Shown: piece after piece, positions 8,486 through 39,588 of the stretch
Layout of the letters: every line of letters starts with the position of its first letter
Position numbering within the stretch: position 1 is the stretch's first letter
Assembly (NCBI RefSeq): GCF_044324875.1
Contig: NZ_CP172188.1
Length of the DNA stretch: 64,000 nucleotides
Reading direction: 5' to 3' (one strand)
Source: Escherichia coli
GTDB lineage: Bacteria > Pseudomonadota > Gammaproteobacteria > Enterobacterales > Enterobacteriaceae
Notes under the pieces: generated by a model
Seen by the model: only the letters and a program-made list of their open reading frames with translations
What the model was told of the DNA's origin: nothing
Database searches by the model: none
Position numbers and translations under genes: made by a program

Positions 8486-8746
8486 ATGCGAAAGAATCGT
8501 AGGTTTACGGTCGAAGACCTAAAGGAATATTCCATATCGAAGGGGTATGTCCTTGAGTTTCACCGTTACAAGAAGGTTTTTACGCTGCGAAAAGCAGAAA
8601 ACCCAGCGAGCTGGAGCTGGGTATACTTCCCTCATACAGAAGACAAACTGGTAGAGCTTGTTGATGATTTAACCTATGAAGGGTGGTTGATCGCAATCGA
8701 CAAGACAATCACAGAAATATCCGAACCGGATAAAATAAACCTTTAA
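8486..8746 (+). CDS. hypothetical protein
   Basis: 86-aa ORF starting 3 nt after the previous stop. Confidence 0.5.
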   Translation: MRKNRRFTVEDLKEYSISKGYVLEFHRYKKVFTLRKAENPASWSWVYFPHTEDKLVELVDDLTYEGWLIAIDKTITEISEPDKINL

Positions 8747-8885
8747 AAATAACAAGTTGGGTAAATGCCATGCGATTTACCCTCCTTGTTGATTAAGGTC
8801 ACTTTTTACTCTAAAAGCAAATCCTACCTGTTGCATATAGCCCAGCCTTGAGTAGTATCTCTCTTGTTTTACAAATCTAACGCAG

Positions 8886-9377
8886 TTGTTATTATTTCGC
8901 TTATTTACTATCAATGGGTGTGTTAGAAAAATAGCGAGGAAAAGAAGGCGTCGCAGTGAATATTCTGAAACGTCCCCACATGCCGCAGCTCTCAGAGAAC
9001 TGGAGAAAAACCCAGATCTAATCAAAAGGAACCATGAGCATTACGAGCAGGTACGCGTCCTGGATTGGTTGTATCGCAATATGCGCTATGTGTATGAGCA
9101 TACACACGCCACTCCAAACGGCGGTCTGCGAGGCATAAGGACGGCAATAAAAATGGTGGCAGAGGGCCAAAAGAAGGGATATCCCGATCTTTCTATAGAC
9201 CTTGCTTGTGGGGGATACCACGGAATGCGCATTGAGATGAAACATGGGAGAAATCGCCTGACTCCCGAACAACTCGTCTGGATGACTCGCCTCACCGAAG
9301 CAGGTTACTACTGCTTTGAGGCGCGCAGTGCCGCTGAAGCCATAAAAGCTATCACGGAATATGTTTGTCTTGATTAA
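8886..9377 (+). CDS. VRR-NUC domain nuclease (PD-(D/E)XK family); true start uncertain (no in-frame ATG near 5' end, TTG/other likely)
   Basis: C-terminal region ...GYPDLSIDLACGGYHGMRIEMKHGRNRLTPEQLVWMTRLTEAGYY... fits the VRR-NUC pattern (G-x-PD ... E-x-K ... Q..W). Confidence 0.6.
   Translation: MLLFRLFTINGCVRKIARKRRRRSEYSETSPHAAALRELEKNPDLIKRNHEHYEQVRVLDWLYRNMRYVYEHTHATPNGGLRGIRTAIKMVAEGQKKGYPDLSIDLACGGYHGMRIEMKHGRNRLTPEQLVWMTRLTEAGYYCFEARSAAEAIKAITEYVCLD
8918..8934 (+). promoter_or_regulatory. operator-like motif copy (GTGTGTTAGAAAAATAG)
   Basis: Matches the recurrent TGTTAGAAAA core; lies at the 5' end of the VRR-NUC ORF. Confidence 0.45.
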
Positions 9378-9391
9378 ACGGAGAAATCGTT

Positions 9392-9592
9392 TTGCGTTTA
9401 CTTAACGTGGCTGAACTTATCCCTGCTGGTGCTAACGTTGTTGCTCGCCGTCGTTCCTGGCAGCAACCATTGTGTGTTGAGTTGTTGAAACACAGCAATG
9501 GAACAATAGAGGCTCGGAATATTGTCACTGGTGATAAGGTTCACATTACCCCGGAAAGTACAGGCGCTGATGATTGGGAGTTTGTACATTGA
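9392..9592 (+). CDS. small DUF2829/Tad2-like protein
   Basis: 66 aa, TTG start with GAGAAA RBS; VVARRRSWQQP ... ADDWEFVH. Confidence 0.4.
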   Translation: MRLLNVAELIPAGANVVARRRSWQQPLCVELLKHSNGTIEARNIVTGDKVHITPESTGADDWEFVH

Positions 9593-9888
9593 GCAAAAAA
9601 TATCATGTGAACCTGGCGTTTGCCGATGACGCCGGGAGGACGCGGAGCATTACGCTCAACACTGCCCGCAAGGTGGTAACAGCGCCTTTAATCCGGGAAG
9701 CACTCAGGGAGCTGGAAATGGGGGAGAACTCGACCCTTTTGTCGGTTAGTTGGTTAGGGAAAATGTCAGAGAAGGAATACGTAGACGGAGTTACTCCCAT
9801 GACAGCCATGAGGCTGCTTTCATTGCTGCAATGGGCTATCGTACCGGTATGCATCGTGTATTTTATCTACCAGGCAATGACACAATAA
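9574..9888 (+). CDS. hypothetical small protein with C-terminal transmembrane segment
   Basis: 104 aa; hydrophobic C-terminus LLSLLQWAIVPVCIVYFIY. Confidence 0.4.
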   Translation: MGVCTLSKKYHVNLAFADDAGRTRSITLNTARKVVTAPLIREALRELEMGENSTLLSVSWLGKMSEKEYVDGVTPMTAMRLLSLLQWAIVPVCIVYFIYQAMTQ

Positions 9889-9894
9889 CCGCTC

Positions 9895-9922
9895 AAAAAC
9901 CCGCCGATTAGCGGGTTTTTTG
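9895..9922 (+). terminator. rho-independent terminator
   Basis: AAAACCCGCCGATTAGCGGGTTTTTTG hairpin + T-run immediately after the 9574..9888 ORF. Confidence 0.7.
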
Positions 9923-9962
9923 TTTATCACATCTTTCGCTCTTGTTCTCATACTAATAAAAT

Positions 9963-9980
9963 ATGTTAGAAAACTAATTT
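9963..9980 (+). promoter_or_regulatory. operator-like motif copy (ATGTTAGAAAACTAATTT)
   Basis: Consensus copy directly upstream of the 10004..11212 CDS. Confidence 0.5.
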
Positions 9981-10003
9981 TGCAAAAAACAATGGGAACT
10001 GCA

Positions 10004-11212
10004 ATGAGTCAACAAACTGATACTTCTAATCTGGAAATCATCTCAGCCGCGATTGAAACGCTGCGGACACAGATCGCCCTTATTCAAAAGCGGAATCCGG
10101 GGGATGACCTGTCCAGACGGCTACATGAGAGCGTCATTGCCACTACTGATAACCTGGTCGCGGAGATCAACCAGCTACTTGAGGAAGGGACGGTTGATTA
10201 CAACAAGCTGGTGGATCAGTTTGAGGAATATCAACAAGCCGTTAATGATGGCTTGATCCGTTTTTCACAAGTCACAGGCGTATCAGCGACAGTTGAAAGT
10301 CTTGGCAATGCTGTTAATCAATTTGCCGCGAATATGCGTAGTGAGATCGGCAATCTGGAAGCGCGTCTTGAACAGGCAAACACACTGCGCAAATCCGCAG
10401 AAGCCGATTTGAGTCGTTACAAAAAAGACTATCCAGCCAGTCTGTCAAAACGACTGGATGTTGCGGAGAAGGATAACCGTGCGCTGAAAAGAGAGCGTCG
10501 GGAACTAAAAGAGCGTTTAACAGAGCTGAATCAGCAATGCATTAAGTATCAAGGCGAAGGCGTCACACTGCGTAAAAAGTTAGCAGCAGCGCAGAACATT
10601 ATTGAAACGCTGAAACGAGAGTGCTCACAGCTTGGTCATGATCTGAACCGCGCTTGTGGTATGGGACAAAGGCCAGAGACATTCCCGCTCATGTATGACG
10701 GGGTGGATGCTATTGCCTATATCCATGAGTACCCGCATGGTCTGGTTGCGGAGACTGGTCAGCGTGGTGAAGCTCTGTTGACGGCTAATTACCATCAACA
10801 AATTAGAACCAACCGCCTGCTGACGATGGATGTGATCCCATCAGTATGGGGAACGCCGCTTTACTATCGCCTGCCCGGCTTCGAAACGGACTGGAATACC
10901 GATATAGACGAATGCCTGGCAGATAAAATTATGGCGTACCTGGAGACTGATTTCCCGCGCCTGCATCGCCGGATTATGGACTCTAAGGATGCGCCGATCG
11001 ATGAATTGAAAATGCGCCCAGAGACGTTGGAAGCTATCAAACAGACTGCGTTTGATACCGTATTCAGCGTGGCCTGTATCCCAAGTAGTTTTCATGAAAG
11101 CATCCCCTTTATGCAGGGCGACCGTCGTCAAGAAATTATTGATGCCTGCCGGGTGTGGGCTAACGAATGGGACAAGAAGAATGGGGGCGTAGAAGATCTT
11201 TATGGGAAATAA
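10004..11212 (+). CDS. hypothetical protein with N-terminal coiled-coil region
   Basis: ORF 9920..11212; most likely start ATG 10004 (GGGAA RBS-like 7 nt upstream); heptad-like charged N-terminal third. Confidence 0.55.
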   Translation: MSQQTDTSNLEIISAAIETLRTQIALIQKRNPGDDLSRRLHESVIATTDNLVAEINQLLEEGTVDYNKLVDQFEEYQQAVNDGLIRFSQVTGVSATVESLGNAVNQFAANMRSEIGNLEARLEQANTLRKSAEADLSRYKKDYPASLSKRLDVAEKDNRALKRERRELKERLTELNQQCIKYQGEGVTLRKKLAAAQNIIETLKRECSQLGHDLNRACGMGQRPETFPLMYDGVDAIAYIHEYPHGLVAETGQRGEALLTANYHQQIRTNRLLTMDVIPSVWGTPLYYRLPGFETDWNTDIDECLADKIMAYLETDFPRLHRRIMDSKDAPIDELKMRPETLEAIKQTAFDTVFSVACIPSSFHESIPFMQGDRRQEIIDACRVWANEWDKKNGGVEDLYGK

Positions 11213-11992: not shown

Positions 11993-12451
11993 GGGTTTTC
12001 GTCATGGTTAGCGACTTTGCGGCGGTTTAGAACCCGACCATTAAAGTAAATGCAAACGATGATCTGATGATGGTAGCGGCCTAAGAAGCCTGACGCCACG
12101 GGGTATGAGTCGTCCCCCGTCAAAAAATCGACCGCAGAGTGTCCCCGTCTGTGTATTAGGGAACGGGGAGGCATAACAGGCAAGGGCGCTGGTGTGATTA
12201 ACCAGATGAATGAGAAGGGTCAGGTCTTTCTGGTCAGCGCCCTTACCTGTTACGTCCCTCCCGCGTAACAGCCATTGATTAATGGCTTTCTGGGATAACA
12301 TCCTACTACGGGTATATCCCGTCATGCTGAAGGCGCTAATCACGCTGGAAGCCAGGGTTGTGCATCCCCTGTTACCGAATTGCAGCCAGGGCGCGGTGCG
12401 CCGAAAAGCATACGGAGGTGGAAGCCCTCGCCGGAGACGTACCCGGCAAGT

Positions 12452-12528
12452 GATGGTGTAGCTCAGTAGGATAGAGCAGCAGCCTTCTAAGCTGTCGGTC
12501 GGTGGTTCGAATCCACCCACCATCGCCA
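12452..12528 (+). tRNA. tRNA-Arg (anticodon TCT)
   Basis: 77 nt; 7-bp acceptor stem GATGGTG/CACCATC, D-arm GCTC..GAGC, anticodon loop CTTCTAA, T-arm GGTGG TTCGAAT CCACC, encoded CCA. Confidence 0.9.
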
Positions 12529-12530
12529 AT

Positions 12531-12606
12531 GCCGGTTTAGCTCAGTTGGTAGAGCGCCTGCCTTGTAAGCAGGATGTCAGCGGTTCGAGTCCGTTAACCG
12601 GCACCA
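12531..12606 (+). tRNA. tRNA-Thr (anticodon TGT)
   Basis: 76 nt; acceptor GCCGGTT/AACCGGC, anticodon loop CTTGTAA, T-loop TTCGAGT, encoded CCA; P1 also carries a tRNA-Thr. Confidence 0.9.
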
Positions 12607-12608
12607 AC

Positions 12609-12694
12609 ACAACAGGTAAGGGTATTTTGCGACGTCGGAGATCGCCGTGCTTGGCAGAGGGTTCGAATCCCTACGAAGTACCCTTACCGTTGTG
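12609..12694 (+). other. tRNA-like remnant / structured element: 15-16 bp stem enclosing a T-loop-like GGTTCGAATCC
   Basis: ACAACAGGTAAGGGTA ... TACCCTTACCGTTGTG inverted repeat; no canonical D or anticodon arm identifiable. Confidence 0.25.
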
Positions 12695-13071
12695 ATGAAG
12701 TGCAGCTCTTTGAAGCAACCAGAAGATAAGCATCTGGCTTCACAACATAAACCGCAGGAACGACCAATAAACGGTAGTCCGTATGGAGAATACCCCGTTG
12801 AGGAAGAGGCCTGGCCGGAACCGTAACCGGCACTACAACGTTGAGAACACTGACGTAACGGGGTCATATCCCAATCTACGAATAAATGTTGCGTTGCAGC
12901 GTGACAACCAGTGTTCTCAACGTTGTGGTGGATTCGCAGACTGATGCGATAGCTTTCTTGGATGTTAGGGAAATGCGGCCGCAAACCTTCCCTTTCGCGA
13001 GCGGTGATCGTCCGTAGTCCTAATTGGCTGCACCGTATGCCGGAGATTCAGTACCGGCCACCACAACGGCC

Positions 13072-13158
13072 GGAGAGTAGGGAGCATGGTGCTCAAGCGG
13101 TCTTGAAAACCGTCCCATTGCGCAAGCGATGATGGTTCGATTCCATTACTCTCCGCCA
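13072..13158 (+). tRNA. atypical type-II (long variable arm) tRNA-like gene, anticodon possibly TGA (Ser-like); may be a pseudo-tRNA
   Basis: 87 nt; acceptor GGAGAGT/ACTCTCC, anticodon stem-loop GCGGT-CTTGAAA-ACCGT, T-arm GATGG TTCGATT CCATT, discriminator G + CCA; D-arm irregular. Confidence 0.4.
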
Positions 13159-13561
13159 TCGCAACGTTAAGAGTATTTGGCTAATTAAGCGAATGCCGGA
13201 AGCAGAACCGGATCAACAAATGCGTACAGGCGTCATCGCCGCCCAGCCAGCCAAGTGCTCTTACCATTGCGGTGAATGCGGCTAAGCGCACGCGGAACAG
13301 TTAAAACAATCCTGCTTACTAAACATCCCGGCGTTAATTGTTAACTGGTTAACGTCACCTGGAGGCACCAGGCACCGCAATCTAACAGCAATGGCGTTTT
13401 GTCTTAAAAGGTAGCTGCAAGTGATGGATTTTTGGGCCTTTGCCGATAAGAACCCTGGTTGGACATTTTTATTTCTGCTGGTGGTTGCATATGGGATCGA
13501 GCAAGCGGCAAAAGCCTTACGCGGTTCTGGCAAAAAGCGTAAGCGGAATTAACAGTAATCT

Positions 13562-13637
13562 GGCCCTTTAGCTCAGTGGTTAGAGCTGGCGACTCATAAT
13601 CGCACGGTCACCGGTTCAAGTCCGGTAGGGGCCACCA
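13562..13637 (+). tRNA. tRNA with CAT anticodon, most likely tRNA-Ile2 (lysidine type) rather than elongator Met
   Basis: 76 nt; GGCCCTT acceptor, anticodon loop CTCATAA, T-loop TTCAAGT; resembles enterobacterial ileX-type tRNA as I recall it; P1 also encodes a tRNA-Ile. Confidence 0.85.
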
Positions 13638-14090: not shown

Positions 14091-14666
14091 ATGTTAACGG
14101 CGAACGATAACGCGTATGCAGAAGCAGATCTCATATTGAGTGACTTCATCGGTCAGCGGGAACGCTGGACACAAAAGCGAGAGGAACTTTATGCCTCGTT
14201 AGTTCGCAAAGGTGTCAACATTGAAACCGCTCAAAGCGGCGATATGACGGTAGTCAGTGTTGGATTACATGGTGTGAGCGTGTCCGCAGCCAATCATGAG
14301 CCATACGTAGCGTTATCCGAGTCGATGGCAAGGCTAATTAAGTTTCTGAAGCAAACAGAAGCCAATAATGTTTTCATCGCCAAAAAGAACATCAATTTTT
14401 CTGCCGCCATGTTCTGGATGATGAAGGGGCTGGATGCCCGCCGGGCATCATGGCCTAAAGGGAGCTATTTATCGATGTTCCGTGGCAGCATTGGCAGCAA
14501 AGAAAAGCTCTTCGAATTCTTGCCGGAAGAGGCATTCGATATTGTGGAAGGGTGCGATGTGATGGTTATGCCTCGCCTGGTAATGATGAATGGGGATTTA
14601 CAGGCGCAGACAGACTGGTTCGCAACTGGCGTGGATATTATCGCAACTGACTGGGAGGCATTCTGA
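14091..14666 (+). CDS. hypothetical protein with C-terminal DUF2829/Tad2-like domain
   Basis: 191 aa; C-terminal LDARRASWPKGSYL ... IIATDWEAF. Confidence 0.5.
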   Translation: MLTANDNAYAEADLILSDFIGQRERWTQKREELYASLVRKGVNIETAQSGDMTVVSVGLHGVSVSAANHEPYVALSESMARLIKFLKQTEANNVFIAKKNINFSAAMFWMMKGLDARRASWPKGSYLSMFRGSIGSKEKLFEFLPEEAFDIVEGCDVMVMPRLVMMNGDLQAQTDWFATGVDIIATDWEAF

Positions 14667-15166: not shown

Positions 15167-15559
15167 ATGGAGCATATCAGCAGCGCAGAAATTGCGGATA
15201 TCATGATTAGGGCTGACTGCTATCTGACAGTCACCGAAATCACCACTCTAGCTAAAGAAAAATATCCTCACCTTCATGTTTCACGCGTAAGTGTAACCAA
15301 CATCATTCGGCATTTTGTGCGGTCAAGCCGAGCTATTTGTGAGCTTGATGATCGTGTTTACCCACGGAAATACTGGTTGCATGGCCTGAACGGATATCAG
15401 TTCAAGGTGCGCGGGCGCACGCCTGAATACGGTAGCTTACTGGTTAAAAACTGTAGCAGGAAATCAGTCGAACAGGCGCGAAAAGAGCAACGAGAGCTGG
15501 TGGACATGGCGAATAAGCTGTGGAATGCCGCCGTTAAAAAGCGTGGTGTTGCTTTATGA
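15167..15559 (+). CDS. candidate late-promoter activator (Lpa-like), by synteny only
   Basis: 130-aa basic protein immediately upstream of the terminase genes and preceded by an operator-like site, as for lpa in P1; no sequence-level confirmation. Confidence 0.3.
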   Translation: MEHISSAEIADIMIRADCYLTVTEITTLAKEKYPHLHVSRVSVTNIIRHFVRSSRAICELDDRVYPRKYWLHGLNGYQFKVRGRTPEYGSLLVKNCSRKSVEQARKEQRELVDMANKLWNAAVKKRGVAL

Positions 15560-16920
15560 GTCTGGTTAATTGGGAGGAGCACCGCGCCCGCTTTATAGCG
15601 TTGCGTGAAGAAAAAGGGATCACTGTAAAGGAATACTGTGAGGAGCATGGCCTTAGCTTCAATACAGCCAGAAAGCATCTCAATATGAAAAAAAATGAGG
15701 TGCGGTCGCAGGTGAAGACTACAAAAAAAAGCACCAAATCACCTGAAAAAAAACGGGCAGGAAGAGCAAAAAAAAGGCCAGAAGAGGGTACAGAAACAAC
15801 AAAATTTACAGAAACTGACAATTCACAGAGCGGAAGTTCTTTCCGGAGCATGCCGAGAAAGAAAACTTCGGATCATAAAAATAACGACAATAATAACAAT
15901 GAGATAAAAGAATCTGTCAGGAGATCATTGCGCGAAAAAATGGCGAAAATGATCCCCACCGAAGATAAATGCGCCTCAAAAATCGAGGGATCTTCAGCAA
16001 TGATCCCTGGCGGTGCTGTGCAGCGTGCCACGTTGCCCACTACGAGTGTGGCTCGCGACATGATGAAGAACGGCGCAGAAGAGCACCTGCGGTTAGCAAT
16101 TCAAATGGCGCAAGAACGCGCACTTCAGTACCAAAGCATTGTTGATCAGGAGGCCGAACGCCTACAGGCGGAGATAGACGCCCTGGGTGATGAACAGCCA
16201 GAAGGAATGCACCCTGGGCAGCGACTTCTCGGTCTAATCAGTGACGCGGCCTACTACATGAACGATTTTATCAGTAGGTTGGCAGCGATATATCAGTCCG
16301 AACAAAAGCTGCGACAGGGTGATGAAAAACTTCGTCAGGGTGCTCGCCAGCAAGCATTCAGAGAGGCCGAGGCCAGAGAAAAACTCGAATTAGCACGCCT
16401 ACAGGCCGAACAGCGTGGCAAAGAGATTGAATATCGCATTGGCGCTGACGCACGCGCAGCCAGAGTTATCGCCGCCGCTATACGTATGCGTGAGCGCGAG
16501 GAGCTGGATGATATCGGTGTTGCTGAATACATCGAGCGTCAGGGTGTCAGTGTCCCGGCTATCCTCGCGGCGCGCGCGGCGAAAGCTATCACTCTTCTCG
16601 AGCCTCCAGTTTCTGACATCAATGATGTTGATGATGAACAGCTGGACAAAGAAGCGAAGGAGTTTGCATCGCTTCAGGCTAACCATCCGCAATGGCTGGC
16701 AGAGCGCCGGGCGGATGTGGCAACCATTGTTGAAGATCTGGGGTGCGGAGATTACGACCACAATGGCGAGCGTAAGGCTGGGGAATTCGAGGCCAACGAC
16801 GAAGAGTTGGATATTGACCCTTCGGCTACGGCTGAAATTTACGGTGATTATGATGCATCAGACGCAGGATATGACGCCGGAGATGATGATATCGCGATAG
16901 AACCGCCGGAGGACGACTAA
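15556..16920 (+). CDS. terminase small subunit (PacA-like)
   Basis: 454 aa; N-terminal HTH-like region, Lys-rich linker, acidic C-terminus; overlaps large-subunit start (TAATG). Confidence 0.55.
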   Translation: MSLVNWEEHRARFIALREEKGITVKEYCEEHGLSFNTARKHLNMKKNEVRSQVKTTKKSTKSPEKKRAGRAKKRPEEGTETTKFTETDNSQSGSSFRSMPRKKTSDHKNNDNNNNEIKESVRRSLREKMAKMIPTEDKCASKIEGSSAMIPGGAVQRATLPTTSVARDMMKNGAEEHLRLAIQMAQERALQYQSIVDQEAERLQAEIDALGDEQPEGMHPGQRLLGLISDAAYYMNDFISRLAAIYQSEQKLRQGDEKLRQGARQQAFREAEAREKLELARLQAEQRGKEIEYRIGADARAARVIAAAIRMREREELDDIGVAEYIERQGVSVPAILAARAAKAITLLEPPVSDINDVDDEQLDKEAKEFASLQANHPQWLAERRADVATIVEDLGCGDYDHNGERKAGEFEANDEELDIDPSATAEIYGDYDASDAGYDAGDDDIAIEPPEDD

Positions 16921-18428
16921 TGGCTGGTGGGCGCAAGATTAAATGCGTCACCAGCGATCCACGCTGGCGCGATATGGTAATCAAATACCGCTACAACTTT
17001 ACCCAGGCTGTTGTTGATATTTTCGGGATGTTTCCCTCCCACCAGCAGCAGGAGATTATCCAGTCCGTACAGCAAAAAGGGAGCAGAACCACTGTTACTT
17101 CTGGTCACGGTACAGGGAAATCGTCGTTAACGGCTATGTTGTTGCTGATTTATTTGATTCTGTTCCCCGATGCCCGTGTCATCATTGTTGCTAACAAGAT
17201 AGGCCAGGTTAAAACAGGCGTATTCAAATACGTTAAACAGTATTGGGCGAATGCAGTTAAGCGTCACGGGTGGTTACAGACCTATTTTGTCCTGTCTGAC
17301 ACCATGTTTTATGAACGTTCCCGCAAAGGGATCTGGGAAGTTCTCTGCAAAGGTTATCGACTCGGTAACGAAGAAGCACTGGCGGGGGAGCACGCGGCAC
17401 ATTTGCTTCTAATTCTGGATGAAGCATCAGGTATATCTGATAAAGCGATCGGCGTAATGACTGGCGCTCTGACTGAAGAAGATAACCGAATGTTGATGCT
17501 ATCCCAGCCAACAAGGCCAAGTGGTTATTTCTACGATTCGCACCATTCTCAAGCTAAAACCCCAGACAACCCGAAAGGGATCTGGACAGCAATTGTTCTT
17601 AACTCAGAAGAATCACCGTTCGTCACACCACAATTCATCAGGCAGAAGCTTCTGGAATATGGCGGGCGCGATTCTATTGAGTACATGGTCAAGGTTCTTG
17701 GTCAGTTTCCTCGGGAGATTAACGGCTATTTGCTTGGTCGTGATGAATGCGATCGCGCTGCGCGGCGCAAGGTGTTGTTGGAGAAAAACTGGGGATGGGT
17801 GGCTACTGCTGACGTTGGTAACGGGCGAGACAAGTCAGTTCTTAATATCTGTAAAGTGTCTGGTCACCGGGAAAAGCGGCGTGTTGTTAACTTTAAGGTA
17901 ATGGAAATGCCAGGGACTATGGACCCGCTGGCTTTTGCTGACTTTATATACAACGAATGCACGCCGGATAAATACCCGAATATTACAATCGCGGTTGACG
18001 CAGACGGTTTTGGTTCAGATACCTGTGCGCAGCTGGTGCGCCGTGGGGCTAATCCGGTACGGATTCGGTGGGGGAAACCCATGTTTTCGAACAAAGACAA
18101 GGAGCGTTTTGTTAACCAGCGTGCCTACGCAAATATTATGGCTCGTGATGCCATAAAGTCAGGTCGTATGCGAATAGACAGCGACCCTAAAACGGCAGAG
18201 CAAGCGTCAAAAATCCCCTTTTTACTTAATGAAGAAGGGAAGATGGCGATGATGCGCAAGGAGCACATGCGGCAAAAGCTGAACATCAAATCACCTGACC
18301 GATGGGATACCTACTGCTTTACAATGCTGGTGGACTATGTTCCTGCTAATGAAGATATCGGCGCTGAAATGGCTACCTTCCGCGATCAGGTTCTTGCAGA
18401 TGTGGAAATGCCAGAGCTGGATATATAA
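16920..18428 (+). CDS. terminase large subunit (PacB-like; ATPase + nuclease)
   Basis: 502 aa; Walker A TSGHGTGKSS, Walker B LLLILDEASGISD, long C-terminal nuclease-type domain. Confidence 0.85.
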   Translation: MAGGRKIKCVTSDPRWRDMVIKYRYNFTQAVVDIFGMFPSHQQQEIIQSVQQKGSRTTVTSGHGTGKSSLTAMLLLIYLILFPDARVIIVANKIGQVKTGVFKYVKQYWANAVKRHGWLQTYFVLSDTMFYERSRKGIWEVLCKGYRLGNEEALAGEHAAHLLLILDEASGISDKAIGVMTGALTEEDNRMLMLSQPTRPSGYFYDSHHSQAKTPDNPKGIWTAIVLNSEESPFVTPQFIRQKLLEYGGRDSIEYMVKVLGQFPREINGYLLGRDECDRAARRKVLLEKNWGWVATADVGNGRDKSVLNICKVSGHREKRRVVNFKVMEMPGTMDPLAFADFIYNECTPDKYPNITIAVDADGFGSDTCAQLVRRGANPVRIRWGKPMFSNKDKERFVNQRAYANIMARDAIKSGRMRIDSDPKTAEQASKIPFLLNEEGKMAMMRKEHMRQKLNIKSPDRWDTYCFTMLVDYVPANEDIGAEMATFRDQVLADVEMPELDI

Positions 18429-19503: not shown

Positions 19504-19520
19504 ATTTAGTTTTCTAACAT
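19504..19520 (-). promoter_or_regulatory. operator-like motif copy (reverse strand ATGTTAGAAAACTAAAT)
   Basis: 13 nt upstream of the candidate repressor start codon. Confidence 0.5.
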
Positions 19521-19691
19521 AAAATTACTATGACAAATCTATGCCGAATAACAGGGTGAGTAAAGGATCAAGATGCATTTTTTTATCATCCAATTTAGAA
19601 AATTCTGCTTAAAAACTGCCAGGCATAACTTAAAGCCCACGCCAGCAATGCATTGCCCATCTGCGCGGAAAGGAAAAAAATTCCTAAGTTT

Positions 19692-19725
19692 CTAACTTTA
19701 GATAATTGGCATTATTTAAAGTTAG
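19692..19725. other. lox-like 34-bp recombination site (13-bp inverted arms, 8-bp spacer)
   Basis: CTAACTTTAGATA-ATTGGCAT-TATTTAAAGTTAG; arms differ at one position; 9 of 13 arm positions shared with loxP ATAACTTCGTATA; 150 bp upstream of the Cre-like gene. Confidence 0.55.
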
Positions 19726-19876
19726 GCTATAATTATGGGTAGATGATCAGTATTGACATCACTGAAAATACGTGCCTCGAATCAAAGGCTTGAATCTTGA
19801 AAATTAACTTATAGCTACCCTGTCATTTTTATATTTTTCGCGTAGCGTCATCTGTATATAGAGGTTAAATAGTTTC

Positions 19877-20905
19877 ATGAGTGAATTAATTATCTCTGGC
19901 AGCTCCGGTGGTTTTCTGCGCAACATTGGCAAAGAGTACCAGGAGGCCGCAGAAAACTTTATGCGGTTCATGAATGACCAGGGGGCTTACGCGCCGAATA
20001 CTTTGCGCGATCTCCGGTTAGTGTTTCACTCCTGGGCGAGATGGTGTCACGCTCGCCAGCTCGCCTGGTTCCCGATCTCACCAGAGATGGCCCGCGAGTA
20101 TTTTCTTCAGCTGCATGATGCTGATCTGGCTTCGACCACCATTGATAAGCACTACGCCATGCTTAACATGCTGCTTTCGCATTGTGGCCTTCCGCCACTT
20201 TCGGATGATAAAAGTGTTTCTCTGGCTATGCGGCGCATCCGGCGTGAAGCGGCAACTGAAAAAGGCGAACGAACAGGCCAGGCTATACCGCTGCGGTGGG
20301 ACGATCTGAAACTGCTCGACGTCCTGTTGTCCAGGTCAGAACGGCTGGTGGACCTGCGCAACCGGGCTTTTCTCTTTGTTGCATACAATACGCTGATGCG
20401 TATGTCGGAAATCTCGCGTATTCGTGTAGGAGATCTGGATCAAACAGGTGACACTGTCACGCTACATATTTCACACACGAAGACAATAACGACCGCCGCC
20501 GGGCTTGATAAGGTGCTTTCCCGTCGCACTACCGCTGTGCTGAATGACTGGCTGGATGTTTCCGGGCTTCGCGAACATCCTGACGCAGTGTTGTTCCCGC
20601 CGATACACCGTAGCAATAAGGCCAGGATCACGACAACGCCCCTTACTGCACCTGCAATGGAGAAAATATTCAGCGACGCCTGGGTGTTGCTGAATAAAAG
20701 AGATGCTACGCCAAACAAAGGAAGATACCGGACGTGGACCGGGCATAGTGCACGCGTCGGGGCCGCTATTGATATGGCTGAAAAGCAGGTGTCTATGGTG
20801 GAGATCATGCAGGAAGGAACCTGGAAGAAACCGGAAACACTTATGCGGTATCTTCGCCGTGGCGGCGTGTCTGTGGGGGCTAATAGCCGCCTGATGGATT
20901 CGTAA
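19877..20905 (+). CDS. cre: Cre-family tyrosine recombinase
   Basis: 342 aa; blocks resembling P1 Cre as recalled: MLNMLLSHCGLPPLSDDKSVSLAMRRIRRE, DLRNRAFLFVAYNTLMRMSEISRIRVGDL, WTGHSARVGAAIDMAEKQVSMVEIMQEGTWKKPETLMRYLR (R-H-R-Y region). Confidence 0.85.
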   Translation: MSELIISGSSGGFLRNIGKEYQEAAENFMRFMNDQGAYAPNTLRDLRLVFHSWARWCHARQLAWFPISPEMAREYFLQLHDADLASTTIDKHYAMLNMLLSHCGLPPLSDDKSVSLAMRRIRREAATEKGERTGQAIPLRWDDLKLLDVLLSRSERLVDLRNRAFLFVAYNTLMRMSEISRIRVGDLDQTGDTVTLHISHTKTITTAAGLDKVLSRRTTAVLNDWLDVSGLREHPDAVLFPPIHRSNKARITTTPLTAPAMEKIFSDAWVLLNKRDATPNKGRYRTWTGHSARVGAAIDMAEKQVSMVEIMQEGTWKKPETLMRYLRRGGVSVGANSRLMDS

Positions 20906-20922
20906 ATTAAAATTCTAACACA
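20905..20922 (-). promoter_or_regulatory. operator-like motif copy (reverse strand TGTGTTAGAATTTTAATT)
   Basis: Upstream of the 20979..24600 operon. Confidence 0.45.
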
Positions 20923-20978
20923 TCTTTTTAGATTAACGCCTTTGCTGTAAAGTACCCTCGCCTATTTAGGAGGGTGCT

Positions 20979-21323
20979 TTGCAGAGTCAAATCACGGAAT
21001 CAAGACGCTTCAAGGTGGATGGTTACACCGTAACCTTCGCCGCTGGTGTTAAGAACAGTCATGCTGTCGTTGTGTTCGGCATCATGACCGGGCTTGAGGC
21101 CGTCCCTGTGTTTACCCTCGAAAAAAACTGGCGAAATCTGGAGGAAGCAGAAAGCTACGTCCGGAAAGTAACCATCATTGCCGCCGAAAAACTCCTGGCC
21201 CACTATCAGGAAAATTATCGCACTATGGTCGAGAAGATTAATCTCGCTTTCACTCGCCCCACTACCGGCTTTATTGCACCGGATACTAATGCCGGTCGAT
21301 ATCCTGCAAGGGGGCGTCGGTGA
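20979..21323 (+). CDS. hypothetical protein
   Basis: 114 aa; TTG start with strong RBS TAGGAGGG. Confidence 0.45.
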   Translation: MQSQITESRRFKVDGYTVTFAAGVKNSHAVVVFGIMTGLEAVPVFTLEKNWRNLEEAESYVRKVTIIAAEKLLAHYQENYRTMVEKINLAFTRPTTGFIAPDTNAGRYPARGRR

Positions 21324-21796
21324 AAACTTATTACCCATCTCTGAATTGTTACCCGTCTTCCTATCCAGAATTATCCGGGAAGCTGTTAGCTCTATTAGCT
21401 AAAGCACCTACGGAATGGTTTAAGCCAGTCGTTATCAATCCACACTTCCTGGGGTACGGATCTGTTCGCACTCGTAACGAACTCAAAAACCTACTGGCGC
21501 ATGGATTCATTCGACACCGTGCCGGGAAAGGCTATCAGTTAGCGATTGCGCCAGAAGAGGCCGTGCGGCTATTCGCATATCGTGACAGCCAGACAAAAGC
21601 TCGGGTAATAGCTCAAATACTTCATAACGGCAGCACCTATGCCCGCCAGTTTGGCGGCGACACGTCGCAGTTCTTGCGGGCGGTGCGATCGCTGGAGGAG
21701 CAAGGAGTTATTGAAAGTTCCTGTCTTCCTGTTCCTACCGTTCCACATATCAAACGTCGGGTTTACACCTTCACGCAGAGAGCTAAAAAACAATGA
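21320..21796 (+). CDS. hypothetical protein
   Basis: 158 aa; GTG start overlapping upstream stop (GTGA). Confidence 0.45.
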   Translation: MKTYYPSLNCYPSSYPELSGKLLALLAKAPTEWFKPVVINPHFLGYGSVRTRNELKNLLAHGFIRHRAGKGYQLAIAPEEAVRLFAYRDSQTKARVIAQILHNGSTYARQFGGDTSQFLRAVRSLEEQGVIESSCLPVPTVPHIKRRVYTFTQRAKKQ

Positions 21797-22287
21797 TTTA
21801 CGTAAAAGTGAAACGCCTACATCCGGCAGCAAAACTTCCAGCTTATGCCACCTCCGGATCGGCGGCGATGGATTTTGAGGCTGTTGAAATAAAACCATGC
21901 GTCGATAGCAATGGTGCAATTTCCTCAAGCTGGTGGGTGTATACCGGACTGGCTATGGAGATCCCGCCCGGCTGGTGTCTGAAACTCTATCCGCGATCAG
22001 GATTGGGCTGCAAAAAACATACTCGCCTGGCTAACTGCGTAGGAATTATCGACTCCGATTATCGCGGCGAAATCATGGCAAAACTGATTACTGATCCAGG
22101 CGGGGAAGGCGTTTGTCTCAAGCCTGGAATGGCTGTCATGCAAGGAATTTTTGAGCGTGTTGAACAAGTCTCACTAGTCGAGGTTGAGGAACTCAACGAA
22201 ACGGAGCGTGGTGCTGGTGGCTTTGGTAGCACATCGGAAGGCCACTTTGAAATTAAGCGTTCACCGCTTCAGTACGAAAAGTTATAA
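21793..22287 (+). CDS. dut: dUTP diphosphatase (dUTPase) family protein
   Basis: 164 aa; motif YPRSGLG and motif G-x-ID-x-DYRGE (GIIDSDYRGE). Confidence 0.75.
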   Translation: MIYVKVKRLHPAAKLPAYATSGSAAMDFEAVEIKPCVDSNGAISSSWWVYTGLAMEIPPGWCLKLYPRSGLGCKKHTRLANCVGIIDSDYRGEIMAKLITDPGGEGVCLKPGMAVMQGIFERVEQVSLVEVEELNETERGAGGFGSTSEGHFEIKRSPLQYEKL

Positions 22288-22301: not shown

Positions 22302-22742
22302 ATGAATAACATGGCAACGAAAGAGCTTTTTAAGTTCCGTCCCAAATACAAAGCTCACAAAAAAAATGGAACCACGGTCATCATTACGGATGACAACGGC
22401 GTGATGATTAATCTTACCGGGAGCGTAACTATTTCTGCTGGTGGCATCACCACCCAGCAAGAAGAAATCGACCTTGAAGCAGCCGACTTTTCAGACGCGC
22501 TGATGTGGCTGAAGGAAGGCAAGAAAGTTGCTCGACGCGGGTGGAACGGCGAAAACCAATTCTGCTGGCTGGTTCCTGAAGGACAGTACCCGGCACGAAT
22601 GGAAGCCATTAAGGGATATTTCCCCGGCGACCTCGTTCCGTATGGTGCTTATTTCGCCTTAAAAAATGCACAAGGTGTAGTTGTTCCGTGGGTGCCTTCA
22701 GTTGGCGACCTGCTGGCCTGTGACTGGTTTGTTGTGGAGTGA
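22302..22742 (+). CDS. DUF2829/Tad2-like domain protein (candidate signalling-nucleotide sponge)
   Basis: 146 aa; C-terminal LMWLKEGKKVARRGWNGENQFCWLV ... PWVPSVGDLLACDWFVVE. Confidence 0.55.
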   Translation: MNNMATKELFKFRPKYKAHKKNGTTVIITDDNGVMINLTGSVTISAGGITTQQEEIDLEAADFSDALMWLKEGKKVARRGWNGENQFCWLVPEGQYPARMEAIKGYFPGDLVPYGAYFALKNAQGVVVPWVPSVGDLLACDWFVVE

Positions 22743-22748
22743 TTTGAC

Positions 22749-23516
22749 ATGGAAAGCACTAAAACAATTCAATACCGCTTGCGTAATGGCCTGCTGGTGG
22801 CTGTTAACGCCGACATGTCACTGCCGTTTGACACGATTGAACGCACTATCATGACGTATCTCGGCTTTAATGAAGAGCTGAATGAAGAGCATGGCGTAGC
22901 TATATGGAGTGATGCAGACAGCGGCGTTCGTCGTTACATCACCGCCAGGGGCAAAGACTACTCTCTGGAAGAACTGTTTGCCCTTGCGCAGTCTTTCGAA
23001 TGTGTAGCATTAGACCTGTTTAATGATCCTGCTATAGCGCAACGACTTATACGCGAGCTTGGGCTATCCGTTACACCAATTATATTTAAAAATGGCAGCC
23101 TGACTGGCACATGGCGCGTAGAACGCATCTCAAACTACCTTCCATATAACCGACAGTTAAATGGAGTAATCTCCGGCGTTAACCAGCCCGTAGCGTGTGA
23201 AAATGTAAACCTGGTTGTCGCTGTTTTGGCAACCGCATGTCGTGTTATCGGTTTGGCTAAACAGGCATTTATTCATTTCCCAAATGGTGCAGAAGGTAGC
23301 GCAGAGATTATCGCGTGTGATTTCGAATTTACCTGGATGCTACGCGAATATCTGGACCAAACAGTATTCCGTGCCGAAGAACTGGATATGTATATCACGT
23401 CAACGATTCCAGACGATGTGCGAGCTGAAGCAATCGCTACAGCCAGGGCGAAATGCCGTGCGGCGATTGCAGAACAGGCCAAAGAAGAAGTTAAGGAAGT
23501 GGCAGATGGCGACTAA
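22749..23516 (+). CDS. hypothetical protein
   Basis: 255-aa ORF in the same operon. Confidence 0.5.
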   Translation: MESTKTIQYRLRNGLLVAVNADMSLPFDTIERTIMTYLGFNEELNEEHGVAIWSDADSGVRRYITARGKDYSLEELFALAQSFECVALDLFNDPAIAQRLIRELGLSVTPIIFKNGSLTGTWRVERISNYLPYNRQLNGVISGVNQPVACENVNLVVAVLATACRVIGLAKQAFIHFPNGAEGSAEIIACDFEFTWMLREYLDQTVFRAEELDMYITSTIPDDVRAEAIATARAKCRAAIAEQAKEEVKEVADGD

Positions 23517-24600
23517 GAGCAATATTTATAAAGATCCGCGCTGGCTGTCGCTGGTGGAGAAATATAAAGACAATTGGGTACTGGCAGCAAAAGAATTGTT
23601 TGATATTGATTTAAGCCACCAGCAACAACAAATTGTTGAAGCTATACAGCCCAATAATGCAAAAGCTACTGTCACCACTCCGTATGGGATCGGACGACCG
23701 CAAGTGCTTGCTGTTATTAGTACCCTTTATACGATTATGTATCCTGATTCCCGGACAGTAATTGTTTATCCAAAATCAAATGTTTGCAAAAGAGGAATTG
23801 TTGCATATGTGTGGCAATGTTGGGAGGCATTGCTGAAAAAACAACCTTTTATCATTGAGTATTTTAAGGTCGGTGATAGCGGTCTGATGTTCAATGAATT
23901 TTGGGGAATGTGCTTTTGTAACTTCCGCCTTAACTATGAAGATAGCATTGCAGGTCACTACGCCGACCATCTTTTATTCATTATTGTGGATTCCGCACAT
24001 ATCAGCGATCGGGCATACAGCATTGTGTGGGCAAGCATGACTAGTGGTGATTCACGCATATTGCTCACTTCAATTCCGTCACCAGAGGAAATAGGCTTTT
24101 TTTATGATTCACATCATGGACGTGCTTTAGCTGAAGATAATCCGAGTGGTGTATATAAAGCCATTAAGCTGAGTGCGGAGGATTCACCATTTATTACCCA
24201 AGAATATCTTGATCATTTTGCCGAAAGGTATGGCGGGCGAAATAGTGATGACTATCGTCGTATGATTCTTGGTGAGTTCCCTGGTATTAGGGAGGCTGTT
24301 CTTGAATCAGATATGCCGAAGACAATGCGCTTTTCGATGCCTGATGGTAGTGAATGGACAATACCATTACGAGTGATAGCCCGGCATCATGCGCAGCACC
24401 ACGCCAAAAAACATGGCGTCACGACATTAGAATGGTTGAAATCGCACACCATTCCACTCTTCACTGCAGATCACAATGCTATCGTTGAGTGGGCAAAAAC
24501 AATTCCGTGGGAGAATGTCGCTGAATACGCCCACATGCTAAAACCGCCGAAAGACAGGCAAGAAATTAGCTGGCTGACAGCAGAAAAAATCATTGAGTGA
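23506..24600 (+). CDS. terminase-large-subunit ATPase-domain paralog with degenerate Walker motifs and no nuclease domain
   Basis: 364 aa from ATG 23506 (RBS AAGGAAG); aligns to PacB-like 16920..18428 (DPRW..KY, SHQQQ, YDSHH, DNP, YGGR, FPG) but Walker A GHGTGKS becomes PYGIGRP and Walker B ILDEAS becomes IIVDSA. Confidence 0.65.
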   Translation: MATKSNIYKDPRWLSLVEKYKDNWVLAAKELFDIDLSHQQQQIVEAIQPNNAKATVTTPYGIGRPQVLAVISTLYTIMYPDSRTVIVYPKSNVCKRGIVAYVWQCWEALLKKQPFIIEYFKVGDSGLMFNEFWGMCFCNFRLNYEDSIAGHYADHLLFIIVDSAHISDRAYSIVWASMTSGDSRILLTSIPSPEEIGFFYDSHHGRALAEDNPSGVYKAIKLSAEDSPFITQEYLDHFAERYGGRNSDDYRRMILGEFPGIREAVLESDMPKTMRFSMPDGSEWTIPLRVIARHHAQHHAKKHGVTTLEWLKSHTIPLFTADHNAIVEWAKTIPWENVAEYAHMLKPPKDRQEISWLTAEKIIE

Positions 24601-24606
24601 TAGTAA

Positions 24607-24636
24607 GAAGCCCGCCTGGTTGAGCGGGCTTCTTTT
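24607..24636. terminator. hairpin terminator between convergent genes
   Basis: GAAGCCCGCCTGGTTGAGCGGGCTTCTTTTC. Confidence 0.6.
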
Positions 24637-25016
24637 CAAATATTGGAACCATATAGTTCACGTAGTTTTTTCGCTACTGAAGATACGGGGATTTCACCAG
24701 TTGCAGCCCCCACTGCAAGCTCCACCAGCACGGGATCATCATATACCTGTATACCGTTACGGCGTAGAAATAGCAGCGCACTGTTTAGCGCGGTACGCTT
24801 ATTGGCATCATTGAATATATGCCCTCTCGCCGTAGCCACCAGGTAGGTGGCGGAGACTTCGAAAAGGTCGGTGATCTCTTCGTAGGCAACTCTGGCCTGA
24901 ACTCTCCCGATAATGGCCTCTGCCCTACCCGGATCTGACATTCCCGGCAGGCCGCCGTAGCGGCTTATATTCGCATCATGAAGCGCAATAAGTTCTTCCG
25001 GTGATATATGCCTCAT
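24636..25016 (-). CDS. doc: Doc toxin (Fic-family kinase) of the phd-doc addiction module
   Basis: 126 aa [40 protein letters not shown]...; essentially the P1 Doc sequence as I recall it. Confidence 0.93.
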
Positions 25017-38647: not shown

Positions 38648-39588
38648 TGAATCTGTCCATCTCTCAAAAAGCGACAATGACCAGCATTGAGATCGCGGAA
38701 CTGGTAGGAAGTCGCCAAGATAGTGTGAAGAGAACTATCGAAACACTGGCTAAAAAGAGTGTGATCCAATTTCCACAATCTGTGGAAATTGAAAATAAAC
38801 AATCAGTTGGCCCTCGTCGATTTTCCAAGGCTTACATCTTTGAAGGCGAACAAGGCAAGCGCGATAGTATCATTGTCGTCGCACAGCTCTCTCCGGAATT
38901 CACCGCCCGGCTGGTGGACCGCTGGCGCGAACTGGAGAATGCCAGGGGACCGTTAAAATCAAAAGCCGAAATCCTGGCTGAAATGGCGCAAATGCATCTT
39001 GAGCATGAACGCCGGATCAACGCCGTAAATGCCCAGGTAGCCGAGGTATCAGCACAAGTATCGATGGTCGCTGAAACACTCGAGCAAATAAAGAAAGGCA
39101 ATATGCCGGAAGGCTACATTGGCTACCGCCAGCTGGCGGCGAAATGCGGCCTGACTGAAGCCAAATGTCGCAACCTGGTTAACGCTTACCGGATACCCAC
39201 TGATACGCATGAGTTTTTGACTCCCGACGGTTTGCTTGCGCGACGCTCAATTGTGGCCCTGGCCCCCTTCCGGAAAGCCTTTAAGCAGGTTATGTCGGAG
39301 GCAGAACCACGCAACAAACGCTGGTATCATCCAAAGATGGGGATGTTTCAGGCAATCCACCATCCTGTGCCTGAAAGTCCAAAGGCAAACCTGTCGTTGC
39401 ATACCGCCAGAGAGAGGATTAAAACAGGGTATGCAATCGTATGCCGTCGAGCATCTTGGCCTGAAGGTGTATGGGTATGGCCCGAAGGTGGATCACGAAA
39501 GCACTGGCGCACTATCCGGGATGGGAAAATCCATGCGATTGATTTAGCTCCAGAGGATGTTGTTGCTACGGACTGGATTGTTAGTTAA
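38647..39588 (+). CDS. antirepressor-like protein: Rha-family N-terminal domain fused to DUF2829/Tad2-like C-terminal domain (module A)
   Basis: 313 aa; N-terminal MTSIEIAELVGSRQDSVKRTIE; C-terminal CRRASWPEGVWVWPEGG ... DLAPEDVVATDWIVS. Confidence 0.65.
   Translation: MNLSISQKATMTSIEIAELVGSRQDSVKRTIETLAKKSVIQFPQSVEIENKQSVGPRRFSKAYIFEGEQGKRDSIIVVAQLSPEFTARLVDRWRELENARGPLKSKAEILAEMAQMHLEHERRINAVNAQVAEVSAQVSMVAETLEQIKKGNMPEGYIGYRQLAAKCGLTEAKCRNLVNAYRIPTDTHEFLTPDGLLARRSIVALAPFRKAFKQVMSEAEPRNKRWYHPKMGMFQAIHHPVPESPKANLSLHTARERIKTGYAIVCRRASWPEGVWVWPEGGSRKHWRTIRDGKIHAIDLAPEDVVATDWIVS

Follow-up and report, generated by a model that had tools for sequence, protein, structure and literature searches.

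A predicted non-catalytic PacB-like terminase ATPase domain fused to a small phage domain in P1-family plasmid-prophages

Large terminases are the motor of DNA packaging and of P1 generalized transduction, and they are also the best-known conserved pattern by which bacterial immune receptors detect tailed phages. Proteins of the phi29 gp16 type join a TerL-family ATPase domain to a small non-nuclease C-terminal domain and are active, essential motors with intact Walker motifs. The Ppi protein of Staphylococcus aureus pathogenicity islands (SaPIs) and the TerS-like Rpp of phage-inducible chromosomal islands (PICIs) and capsid-forming PICIs (cf-PICIs) are non-catalytic proteins that bind terminase components of the helper phage. 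For the receptor EcAvs2, the TerL ATPase domain suffices for activation; it is engaged via a large shape-complementary pocket, and the interface includes terminase-bound ATP, contacted through bridging ATP; Upx was proposed from AlphaFold 3 models to bind the ATPase core (bioRxiv 10.64898/2026.04.30.721860). Phages also encode extra TerL-ATPase-like proteins of unassigned role, e.g., T4 vs.8, which like Ksap1/Ksap2 is a non-terminase activator of Avs2 (bioRxiv 10.64898/2026.04.30.721860). Here, we analyze a gene within a 64,000-nucleotide stretch of Escherichia coli contig NZ_CP172188.1 (assembly GCF_044324875.1), the whole of which is called the window. Judging from its sequence, the product of this gene, referred to as the pseudo-terminase, is a non-catalytic, ancient copy of a PacB-type ATPase domain fused to a domain of ~100 residues. 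Its features, and the genuine terminase genes of the same window, are as follows:

23506..24600, + strand: pseudo-terminase coding sequence, 364 residues, equal to WP_000201932.1 (open reading frame (ORF) list; NCBI Prokaryotic Genome Annotation Pipeline (PGAP); phrog_5902; ratio of nonsynonymous to synonymous substitution rates (dN/dS))
23506..24297, + strand: PacB-like TerL ATPase-fold domain, residues 1-264, catalytically degenerate
23677..23700, + strand: Walker A equivalent, T58-P-Y-G-I-G-R-P65 (PacB SGHGTGKS), from alignments
23971..23991, + strand: Walker B equivalent, L156-L-F-I-I-V161-D162 (PacB LLLILDE), from alignments
24298..24597, + strand: C-terminal domain of ~100 residues, residues 265-364, a stand-alone phage protein elsewhere (profile search; phrog_17928)
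16920..18428, + strand: PacB large terminase, 502 residues, GHGTGKS and ILDEAS intact (ORF list, alignment, PHROGs, PGAP)
15556..16920, + strand: PacA small terminase, pacase A subunit (phrog_1711, E 1e-177; PGAP name)

The reading frame runs from an ATG at 23506 to a stop codon at 24598-24600, and PGAP places a coding sequence named “hypothetical protein” at the same coordinates. A first-pass annotation of this DNA had proposed block-by-block kinship with the ATPase domain of PacB, degenerate Walker motifs and the absence of a nuclease domain, and all three proposals were borne out. In a BLASTP comparison, residues 7-259 aligned with residues 10-264 of the window PacB (95/258 identities, 37%; E 1e-61), and every block listed in that annotation was found (DPRW..KY, SHQQQ, FYDSHH, DNP, YGGR and FP), the common elements including the Q-motif (SHQQQ), the S-x-P of the C-motif and the lid motifs FYDSHH, NPxG, YGG and GxFP. 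BLASTP detected no similarity to PacB residues 270-502; the frame ends 100 residues past the ATPase domain, with a C-terminus from a separate family in place of the nuclease. Residues 4-363 matched positions 2-358 of the 359-position phrog_5902 profile (E 8.6e-165; labeled “unknown function” in PHROGs), which is matched by PacB too, over its first 364 residues. An AlphaFold2 model generated from a composite alignment had high internal confidence (predicted local distance difference test (pLDDT) 92.1; predicted template modeling score (pTM) 0.85) and a predicted TerL-type additional strand catalytic glutamate (ASCE) ATPase fold; the composite input was needed for a confident model, as the single sequence alone gave a pLDDT of 39. 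The pseudo-terminase had no match in Pfam or in a PDB sequence search, only sub-threshold terminase matches in NCBIfam, and no match to PADLOC models at E<=0.1 (nor did IsaA, the product of the gene directly upstream). Megablast against phage genomes gave no match, relatives being found at the protein level, and a word-index protein search returned close relatives only and no PacBs. In public annotations these relatives are named “hypothetical protein” or, wrongly, “terminase large subunit”.

The ATP site has been altered at its central positions. Relative to PacB, the Walker A equivalent carries Arg instead of Lys and Pro instead of the first Gly, and the Walker B equivalent (PacB LLLILDEAS versus L156-L-F-I-I-V161-D162-S-A) carries Val instead of Asp and Asp instead of the catalytic Glu. 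The same positions vary throughout the family: the Walker A Lys, invariant in 13 PacBs, is replaced by R, E, H, Q or T across all paralog lineages, with a Lys displaced by one residue in some of them (GHKS, GQKT, GTKT), and the Walker B Asp is V, I, M, T, A or L in every lineage, followed by D, N or E at the position of the catalytic Glu. Several residues that are fixed in the 13 PacBs vary among the paralogs, including Lys and Ser of Walker A, Asp and Glu of Walker B and Gln of the C-motif. Paralogs and PacBs alike retain an invariant fold core and invariant lid motifs.

The pseudo-terminase belongs to a known fold family but has a new architecture and is a new functional variant, a pseudo-ATPase joined to an orphan domain. 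It resembles phi29 gp16 in consisting of an ATPase-type domain and a small non-nuclease C-terminus, but lacks the Walker motifs and coexists with a complete PacB. SaPI Ppi and Rpp, compared here from their descriptions, illustrate the binding-only interference on which some of the rival explanations below draw, but they target or mimic the small terminase, are not known to be related in sequence, and none is known to be a degenerate TerL ATPase domain. With the PacB of P1 and D6 it shares homology across the whole ATPase domain (33-37% identity), the ASCE fold and phrog_5902; it lacks, however, the Walker A Lys, the Walker B Asp and the RNase-H-like nuclease domain, ends in another C-terminal domain, and is optional, highly polymorphic and not beside pacA, whereas PacB is essential (PMC10695390). 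Like T4 vs.8, which has been discussed as a possible anti-defense protein (bioRxiv 10.64898/2026.04.30.721860), it is an extra phage protein homologous to the ATPase domain of the phage's own TerL. In a comparison by description only, vs.8 keeps Walker A and B and activates EcAvs2, whereas the pseudo-terminase has lost both motifs and has an extra C-terminal domain, so that it shows the homology of the vs.8-like class to the phage's own TerL but not its conserved Walker motifs. A literature search covering the accession, PacB paralogs, terminase decoys and anti-Avs terminase mimics found no description of the pseudo-terminase; ORFs of unassigned function have been noted in the isaA/isaB region of a P1-like plasmid (PMC6906374).

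The gene is carried by roughly one in five P1-family plasmids, which come from E. coli, Salmonella, Shigella and Klebsiella; full-length relatives are present in 163 of the 790 plasmid records that have a PacB-like match (~20%). Relatives were also found in several phage records deposited as “P1” and in many IMG/VR contigs, and P1, P7 and D6 themselves have no pseudo-terminase; the ortholog search of P1-family genomes suggested in the first-pass annotation found orthologs in a subset of these genomes. At least four lineages, 37-66% identical, keep the same architecture. The first is the window type and the second is ~64% identical to it (NZ_CP115379; proteins P0004-P0006), while the third, ~51% identical, occurs in P1-like IncY elements (MH422554; a K. 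pneumoniae plasmid). The fourth, 37-39% identical and 362 residues long (IMGVR_UViG_2773857937_000001; locus L134, 4206-5294), has the P-loop GEGVGTKT and the Walker B sequence IVLNAS, and is encoded directly 3' of a DnaB-like (ban-like) helicase gene and upstream of convergent tail and baseplate genes. Shortened forms without all or part of the small domain also exist (P0007, 266 residues, 6 members; P0003, 263 residues, 24 members). In locus L005 (5989-6984) a pseudo-terminase shortened to 331 residues is followed by IS911. At least one truncation results from an IS3-family insertion; others may be frameshifts, assembly artifacts or contig ends. As a separate observation, a 99%-identical paralog ORF on IMGVR_UViG_3300029310_000108 (locus L020, 97-1446) has a Glu/Lys-rich N-terminal extension that replaces the overlap with isaA; this could reflect chimeric assembly or a junction of another kind.

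Within pseudo-terminase types dN/dS ranged from 0.08 to 0.4, which indicates purifying selection, and the terminase-like domain itself was under such selection; between types the ratio was 0.17-0.53, with saturated dS. In a neighbor-joining tree of paralogs and PacBs, a simple method applied here to long branches, the paralogs formed one clade outside all enteric PacBs, which points to one old duplication or capture and not to a copy of the resident gene. These data bear on the possibility that the pseudo-terminase is a decaying, functionless remnant of a duplicated terminase gene. A remnant of this kind could well lack catalytic motifs and a nuclease domain, as the pseudo-terminase does, but intact full-length ORFs persist in the 163 plasmid records and many IMG/VR contigs, at least four lineages retain one architecture at 37-66% identity, dN/dS is well below 1, and the AlphaFold2 model is confidently folded. 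Decay is effectively refuted by the selection and conservation data and is regarded as highly improbable. Low dN/dS, shared architecture and motif loss in every lineage together argue for a maintained pseudo-enzyme, and the alignments indicate that catalytic degeneracy is a family-wide, selected state and not a recent accident. The pseudo-terminase is inferred to work by binding and not by catalysis.

Alleles of the terminase-like domain have been exchanged with domain precision:

23489..24296, + strand: segment exchanged for a divergent allele between otherwise 98-100% identical plasmids (window versus NZ_CP115379.1)

When the window was compared with NZ_CP115379.1 using a 60-column identity profile, identity was 98-100% through DUF2829, isaA, the C-terminal domain and doc/phd, and only 50-75% at the DNA level across 23489-24296, which is exactly the terminase-like domain. 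Since dS between alleles is saturated, these appear to be old alleles moved by recombination. Two IMG/VR contigs with differing alleles share 8.1 kb of the PacA-PacB-c1 locus at 99.3% identity and encode identical PacB proteins, so the target of the variable face does not seem to co-vary with the resident terminase. The pseudo-terminase is also about equally far (33-37% identity) from every enteric PacB type, and no allele is paired with a PacB clade. The uncoupling of alleles from the resident PacA-PacB suggests that the variable terminase-like surface binds something other than the resident packaging machinery. Independent allele variation, combined with the position of the gene as optional cargo beside isaA and a Tad2-like gene, argues against a core packaging regulator and for a role in conflict.

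The C-terminal 100 residues, overlooked in the first-pass annotation, are a distinct and widespread domain. When 1.84 billion representatives were searched with a profile of residues 256-364, 278 proteins scored E<=1e-3; the majority were stand-alone proteins of ~100 residues, and some were long coiled-coil proteins of phrog_17928 that end in the domain (pseudo-terminase residues 265-350 match phrog_17928 positions 399-486; E 2e-13). The family has a clear signature over ~95 residues (MPDGSxWxVP, TxPLF, WAxxxMxWxDV), which is present in the pseudo-terminase, and the AlphaFold2 model predicts the topology bbaaaba. An alignment search found no Pfam family for the domain, and there was no PDB match; in the window, a local hidden Markov model (HMM) of it matched only the pseudo-terminase ORF (E 2e-32). 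Although the domain occurs alone or after a coiled coil in phrog_17928 and the stand-alone proteins, it is joined to a terminase-like domain only in the pseudo-terminase family. Stand-alone copies sit among early, replication or recombination-type genes, near ERF and DNA-repair glycosylases; examples are gp35 of the P1-like Cronobacter phage JK004 (locus L184, 3495-3791), two genes after a ban-like DnaB helicase, and further copies in Xanthomonas CP2-like phages. One stand-alone copy, on a contig of an unrelated phage (L015), adjoins a Tad2-like gene, which is anecdotal. Systematic pairing of the small domain with DUF2829 or isaA was considered and rejected, as local HMMs found it at 0/80 IMG/VR loci within ~3.5 kb.

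A fusion of reverse order was found in Klebsiella michiganensis (GCA_024867085.4; locus L010, 8001-8741), in which the small domain precedes a PacB-like domain with the P-loop GSGTGTTT, the protein ending after 246 residues at a Tn3-family transposase gene on the other strand (8738-10384). The two domains were thus joined more than once, which points to a functional linkage between them. AbiH and a RecA-dependent nuclease (Ref-like) are encoded nearby at that locus. The same comparisons raise the possibility that the small domain carries the function, an early role in replication or recombination operons, and that the terminase-like part is a scaffold or a DNA- or nucleotide-binding adaptor. 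The domain greatly outnumbers the fusion and is mostly encoded by itself among early genes, it has other N-terminal partners such as the phrog_17928 coiled-coil proteins, and it is better conserved between alleles than the N-terminal domain. However, forms without it persist (P0007 and P0003, some perhaps assembly or frameshift artifacts), the terminase-like domain is itself under purifying selection, and fusion of the two parts took place at least two times, in both orders. We consider this explanation unlikely.

The segment encoding isaA and the pseudo-terminase (22749-24600) is 100% identical to ~90-kb E. coli plasmids (e.g., pPSS-10_3, NZ_AP027688.1), which belong to the D6-type plasmid-prophages of the P1 family. 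Locally, the genes run lpa, pacA, pacB, a c1-like repressor gene (minus strand) and cre (19877..20905), followed by a tight co-directional cluster of two hypothetical ORFs, dut, DUF2829, isaA and the pseudo-terminase gene:

19877..22287, + strand: cre-like recombinase gene, two hypothetical ORFs and dut, with gaps <=73 nt or overlaps
22302..22742, + strand: DUF2829 (Tad2-like) gene, 146 residues, directly upstream of isaA (PGAP name; phrog_872)
22749..23516, + strand: isaA homolog, 255 residues (48% identity to P1 isaA by tblastn; phrog_2326, E 1e-133)
24614..24639, + strand: terminator-like hairpin GCCCGC..GCGGGC with a T-run, just after the pseudo-terminase stop codon, between the convergent cluster and doc

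Downstream of the hairpin lie the convergent doc/phd and humD. The end of isaA overlaps the start of the pseudo-terminase gene by 11 nt, and such coupling is conserved in other elements. IsaA genes occur in 474 plasmid records versus 163 for the pseudo-terminase. IsaA matched neither Pfam nor any PDB sequence. As a PacA-like partner in a “pseudo-holoenzyme” it was rejected (hhalign probability 0.1), and P1 IsaB was likewise discarded as a pseudo-terminase remnant, as it showed no similarity. DUF2829 is a Tad2-like (anti-Thoeris sponge) family, and a second gene of this family lies at 14091..14666 (PGAP “Thoeris anti-defense Tad2 family protein”). The window DUF2829 protein (22302-22742; 146 residues) is a shortened form of 220-233-residue versions at the same position in related plasmids (loci L004 and L005).

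Comparison of this region between elements showed a modular arrangement. In the D6-like window the order is dut-DUF2829-isaA-paralog, and pSL26_91 has dut-DUF2829-isaA without the paralog. P1-like elements carry ssb-DUF2829-isaA-paralog or ssb-isaA-paralog, and an SJ46-like element has ssb-DUF2829-isaA without it. In P1 (NC_005856, 21569-24132; locus L103) the slot after isaA is filled by IS1 and the unrelated isaB (phrog_30162). The site 3' of isaA therefore behaves as a cargo hotspot across P1-like elements, and the pseudo-terminase is an optional passenger of the isaA module, found in non-structural operons at three different genomic sites.

This distribution can be set against a role in the element's own packaging, in which the pseudo-terminase, neither cutting nor translocating DNA, would adjust the timing of pac cleavage and headful packaging or their processivity, or how often transduction occurs, through contacts with PacA, the pac site or the procapsid portal. 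Such a modulator would fit the conservation of those non-catalytic stretches of the PacB ATPase domain that probably mediate interactions, as well as the conserved 11-nt overlap and translational coupling to isaA, and in one P1-like contig (L117) a stand-alone small-domain gene (4986-5303) lies ~1 kb from a convergent full-length PacB gene. Against it stand the optional nature of the gene (~20% of PacB-positive plasmid records, none in P1, P7 or D6), the presence of very different alleles beside identical PacA-PacB and its location at three sites in non-structural operons and not among late genes. The neighboring isaA is, moreover, non-essential in P1, in which PacB is essential (PMC10695390). 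We assign modulation a low probability.

Expression signals of the cluster were sparse, and two were retained as features:

19706..19733, + strand: best sigma-70-like promoter, TTGGCA-16-TATAAT, upstream of cre, 11/12 matches
20909..20922, - strand: degenerate ATGTTAGAAAACTAA copy, 11/14 matches, in the gap between cre and the ORF at 20979

The operator-like motif ATGTTAGAAAACTAA, which is asymmetric and AT-rich, occurs at ~14 intergenic sites of the window, including one upstream of lpa (15079) and others at 9964, 11371, 19510(-), 31445/31465, 36964, 37621(-), 52757/52777, 61822/61842 and 63761. Some sites form inverted pairs 20 bp apart, and a good copy is present at 19506-19522 in the c1-cre gap. 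These repeats probably represent a D6-type C1 operator set; the P1 C1 operator consensus was tried and discarded, with 0 matches in the window. The P1 late-promoter -22/-10 pattern was absent from the cluster, and its matches across the window were below chance. The first-pass annotation had described the pseudo-terminase as expressed from an operator-fronted operon separate from the real terminase genes. Separation holds, as the gene lies 5 kb from pacA-pacB in another cluster, but the case for an operator is weak: the degenerate 11/14 copy precedes the ORF at 20979, no promoter-like site was found beside that copy (20909-20922), and the only strong promoter-like site of the region is the one at 19706-19733. 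P1 has a C1 operator, Ossb, in its ssb operon and transcribes pacA-pacB from a late promoter, which suggests that in P1-like elements the pseudo-terminase is plausibly an early, repressor-controlled gene, unlike the late pacA-pacB.

Timing of expression is relevant to a further explanation, in which the pseudo-terminase is a weapon in phage competition. By inserting into or capping a rival's terminase complex, either PacA-PacB or the pentameric portal-bound motor, the inactive ATPase domain would poison the packaging of related P1-family phages or satellites that superinfect, different alleles targeting different rival terminase types. The terminase fold, N-terminal helices and lid motifs shared with PacB and the missing catalytic residues are those of a dominant-negative subunit, its polymorphic alleles vary without regard to the resident PacAB, and plasmid-prophage carriers often meet relatives, as the 790 PacB-positive plasmid records attest. 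The window gene also lies downstream of cre, which is expressed in P1 lysogens. Conversely, copies in P1-like elements lie in the ssb operon, which in P1 is C1-repressed in lysogens, the wrong state for superinfection exclusion, and the C-terminal domain is left unexplained. Dominant-negative poisoning is also weakened because the pseudo-terminase is about equally distant from all PacB types, with no match between alleles and PacB clades, and because the resident's own PacB would be at risk, with no immunity mechanism visible. Overall, such a weapon seems improbable.

The first-pass annotation had put forward three roles, those of a packaging modulator, a dominant-negative exclusion factor and a decoy for sensors of terminase. 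The mechanism we prefer, tentatively and at less than an even chance, is that the pseudo-terminase mimics terminase towards host receptors that sense the TerL ATPase domain (Avs2/Avs3/Upx-type). A host-sensor target is ranked first because independence from PacAB, optional distribution and gene neighborhood make modulation of the element's own packaging least likely, and because the similar distance to all PacB types and the danger of self-poisoning weaken an attack on rival phages. Expressed from a non-structural operon, either earlier than late-expressed PacB or separately from it, the pseudo-terminase would offer its terminase-shaped domain to sensors of the TerL ATPase domain. These sensors would be occupied or misled, the ATP-dependent activating interface not being provided, and the appended small domain would supply a blocking or anchoring activity. 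A more specific form, in which an exchangeable pseudo-terminase that lost ATP binding and gained a blocking domain jams Avs2/Avs3/Upx-type sensors and alleles are swapped as sensor repertoires change, is possible but on the doubtful side. Alternatively, within the same sensor view, the protein may have been forced to lose its ATP site and to diversify in order to escape sensing.

Several points weigh against mimicry of this kind. The anti-Avs proteins known so far, a ligase and a DprA-like protein, have no relationship to it, and a mimic that binds Avs could equally trigger it. Comparisons between alleles gave no positive-selection signature, only allele exchange. Tad2-like genes are loosely linked to the pseudo-terminase, as some isaA-paralog pairs lack DUF2829; outside P1/D6-family elements the association was seen on one further contig. 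What paralogs and PacBs have in common lies, furthermore, in the N-terminal helices and the lid region (FYDSHH, NPxG, YGG, GxFP), which in terminases such as lambda gpA and T4 gp17 contact TerS, the portal or neighboring subunits, so a packaging-related partner fits equally well.

Whichever partner applies, a motor-domain copy that is conserved, catalytically dead and exchangeable offers a natural means of asking which partners bind this domain, be it immune sensors, the small terminase, the portal or rival phages. As a decoy, the pseudo-terminase would represent a new anti-defense principle and the first case of viral self-mimicry serving to decoy a bacterial pattern-recognition receptor; as a poison or modulator of packaging, it would bear on phage-plasmid competition and transduction. 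For two orphan families, P1 isaA and the stand-alone phage domain of ~100 residues, it also gives a first starting point for functional study.

Two further features of the window were recorded away from the pseudo-terminase cluster. The RefSeq record annotates a cluster of four tRNA genes (Arg, Thr, Ser, Ile) at ~12400-13600 (locus L003, 1649-2843), upstream of the Tad2-family gene at 14091..14666. A sequence of ~30-100 bp with CGCCAGCTGGCGGCGAAA...GGCCTGACTGAA is present in three copies (58-90, 39126-39160 and 62843-62875) and could correspond to gene segments such as tail-fiber or invertible-region sequence.

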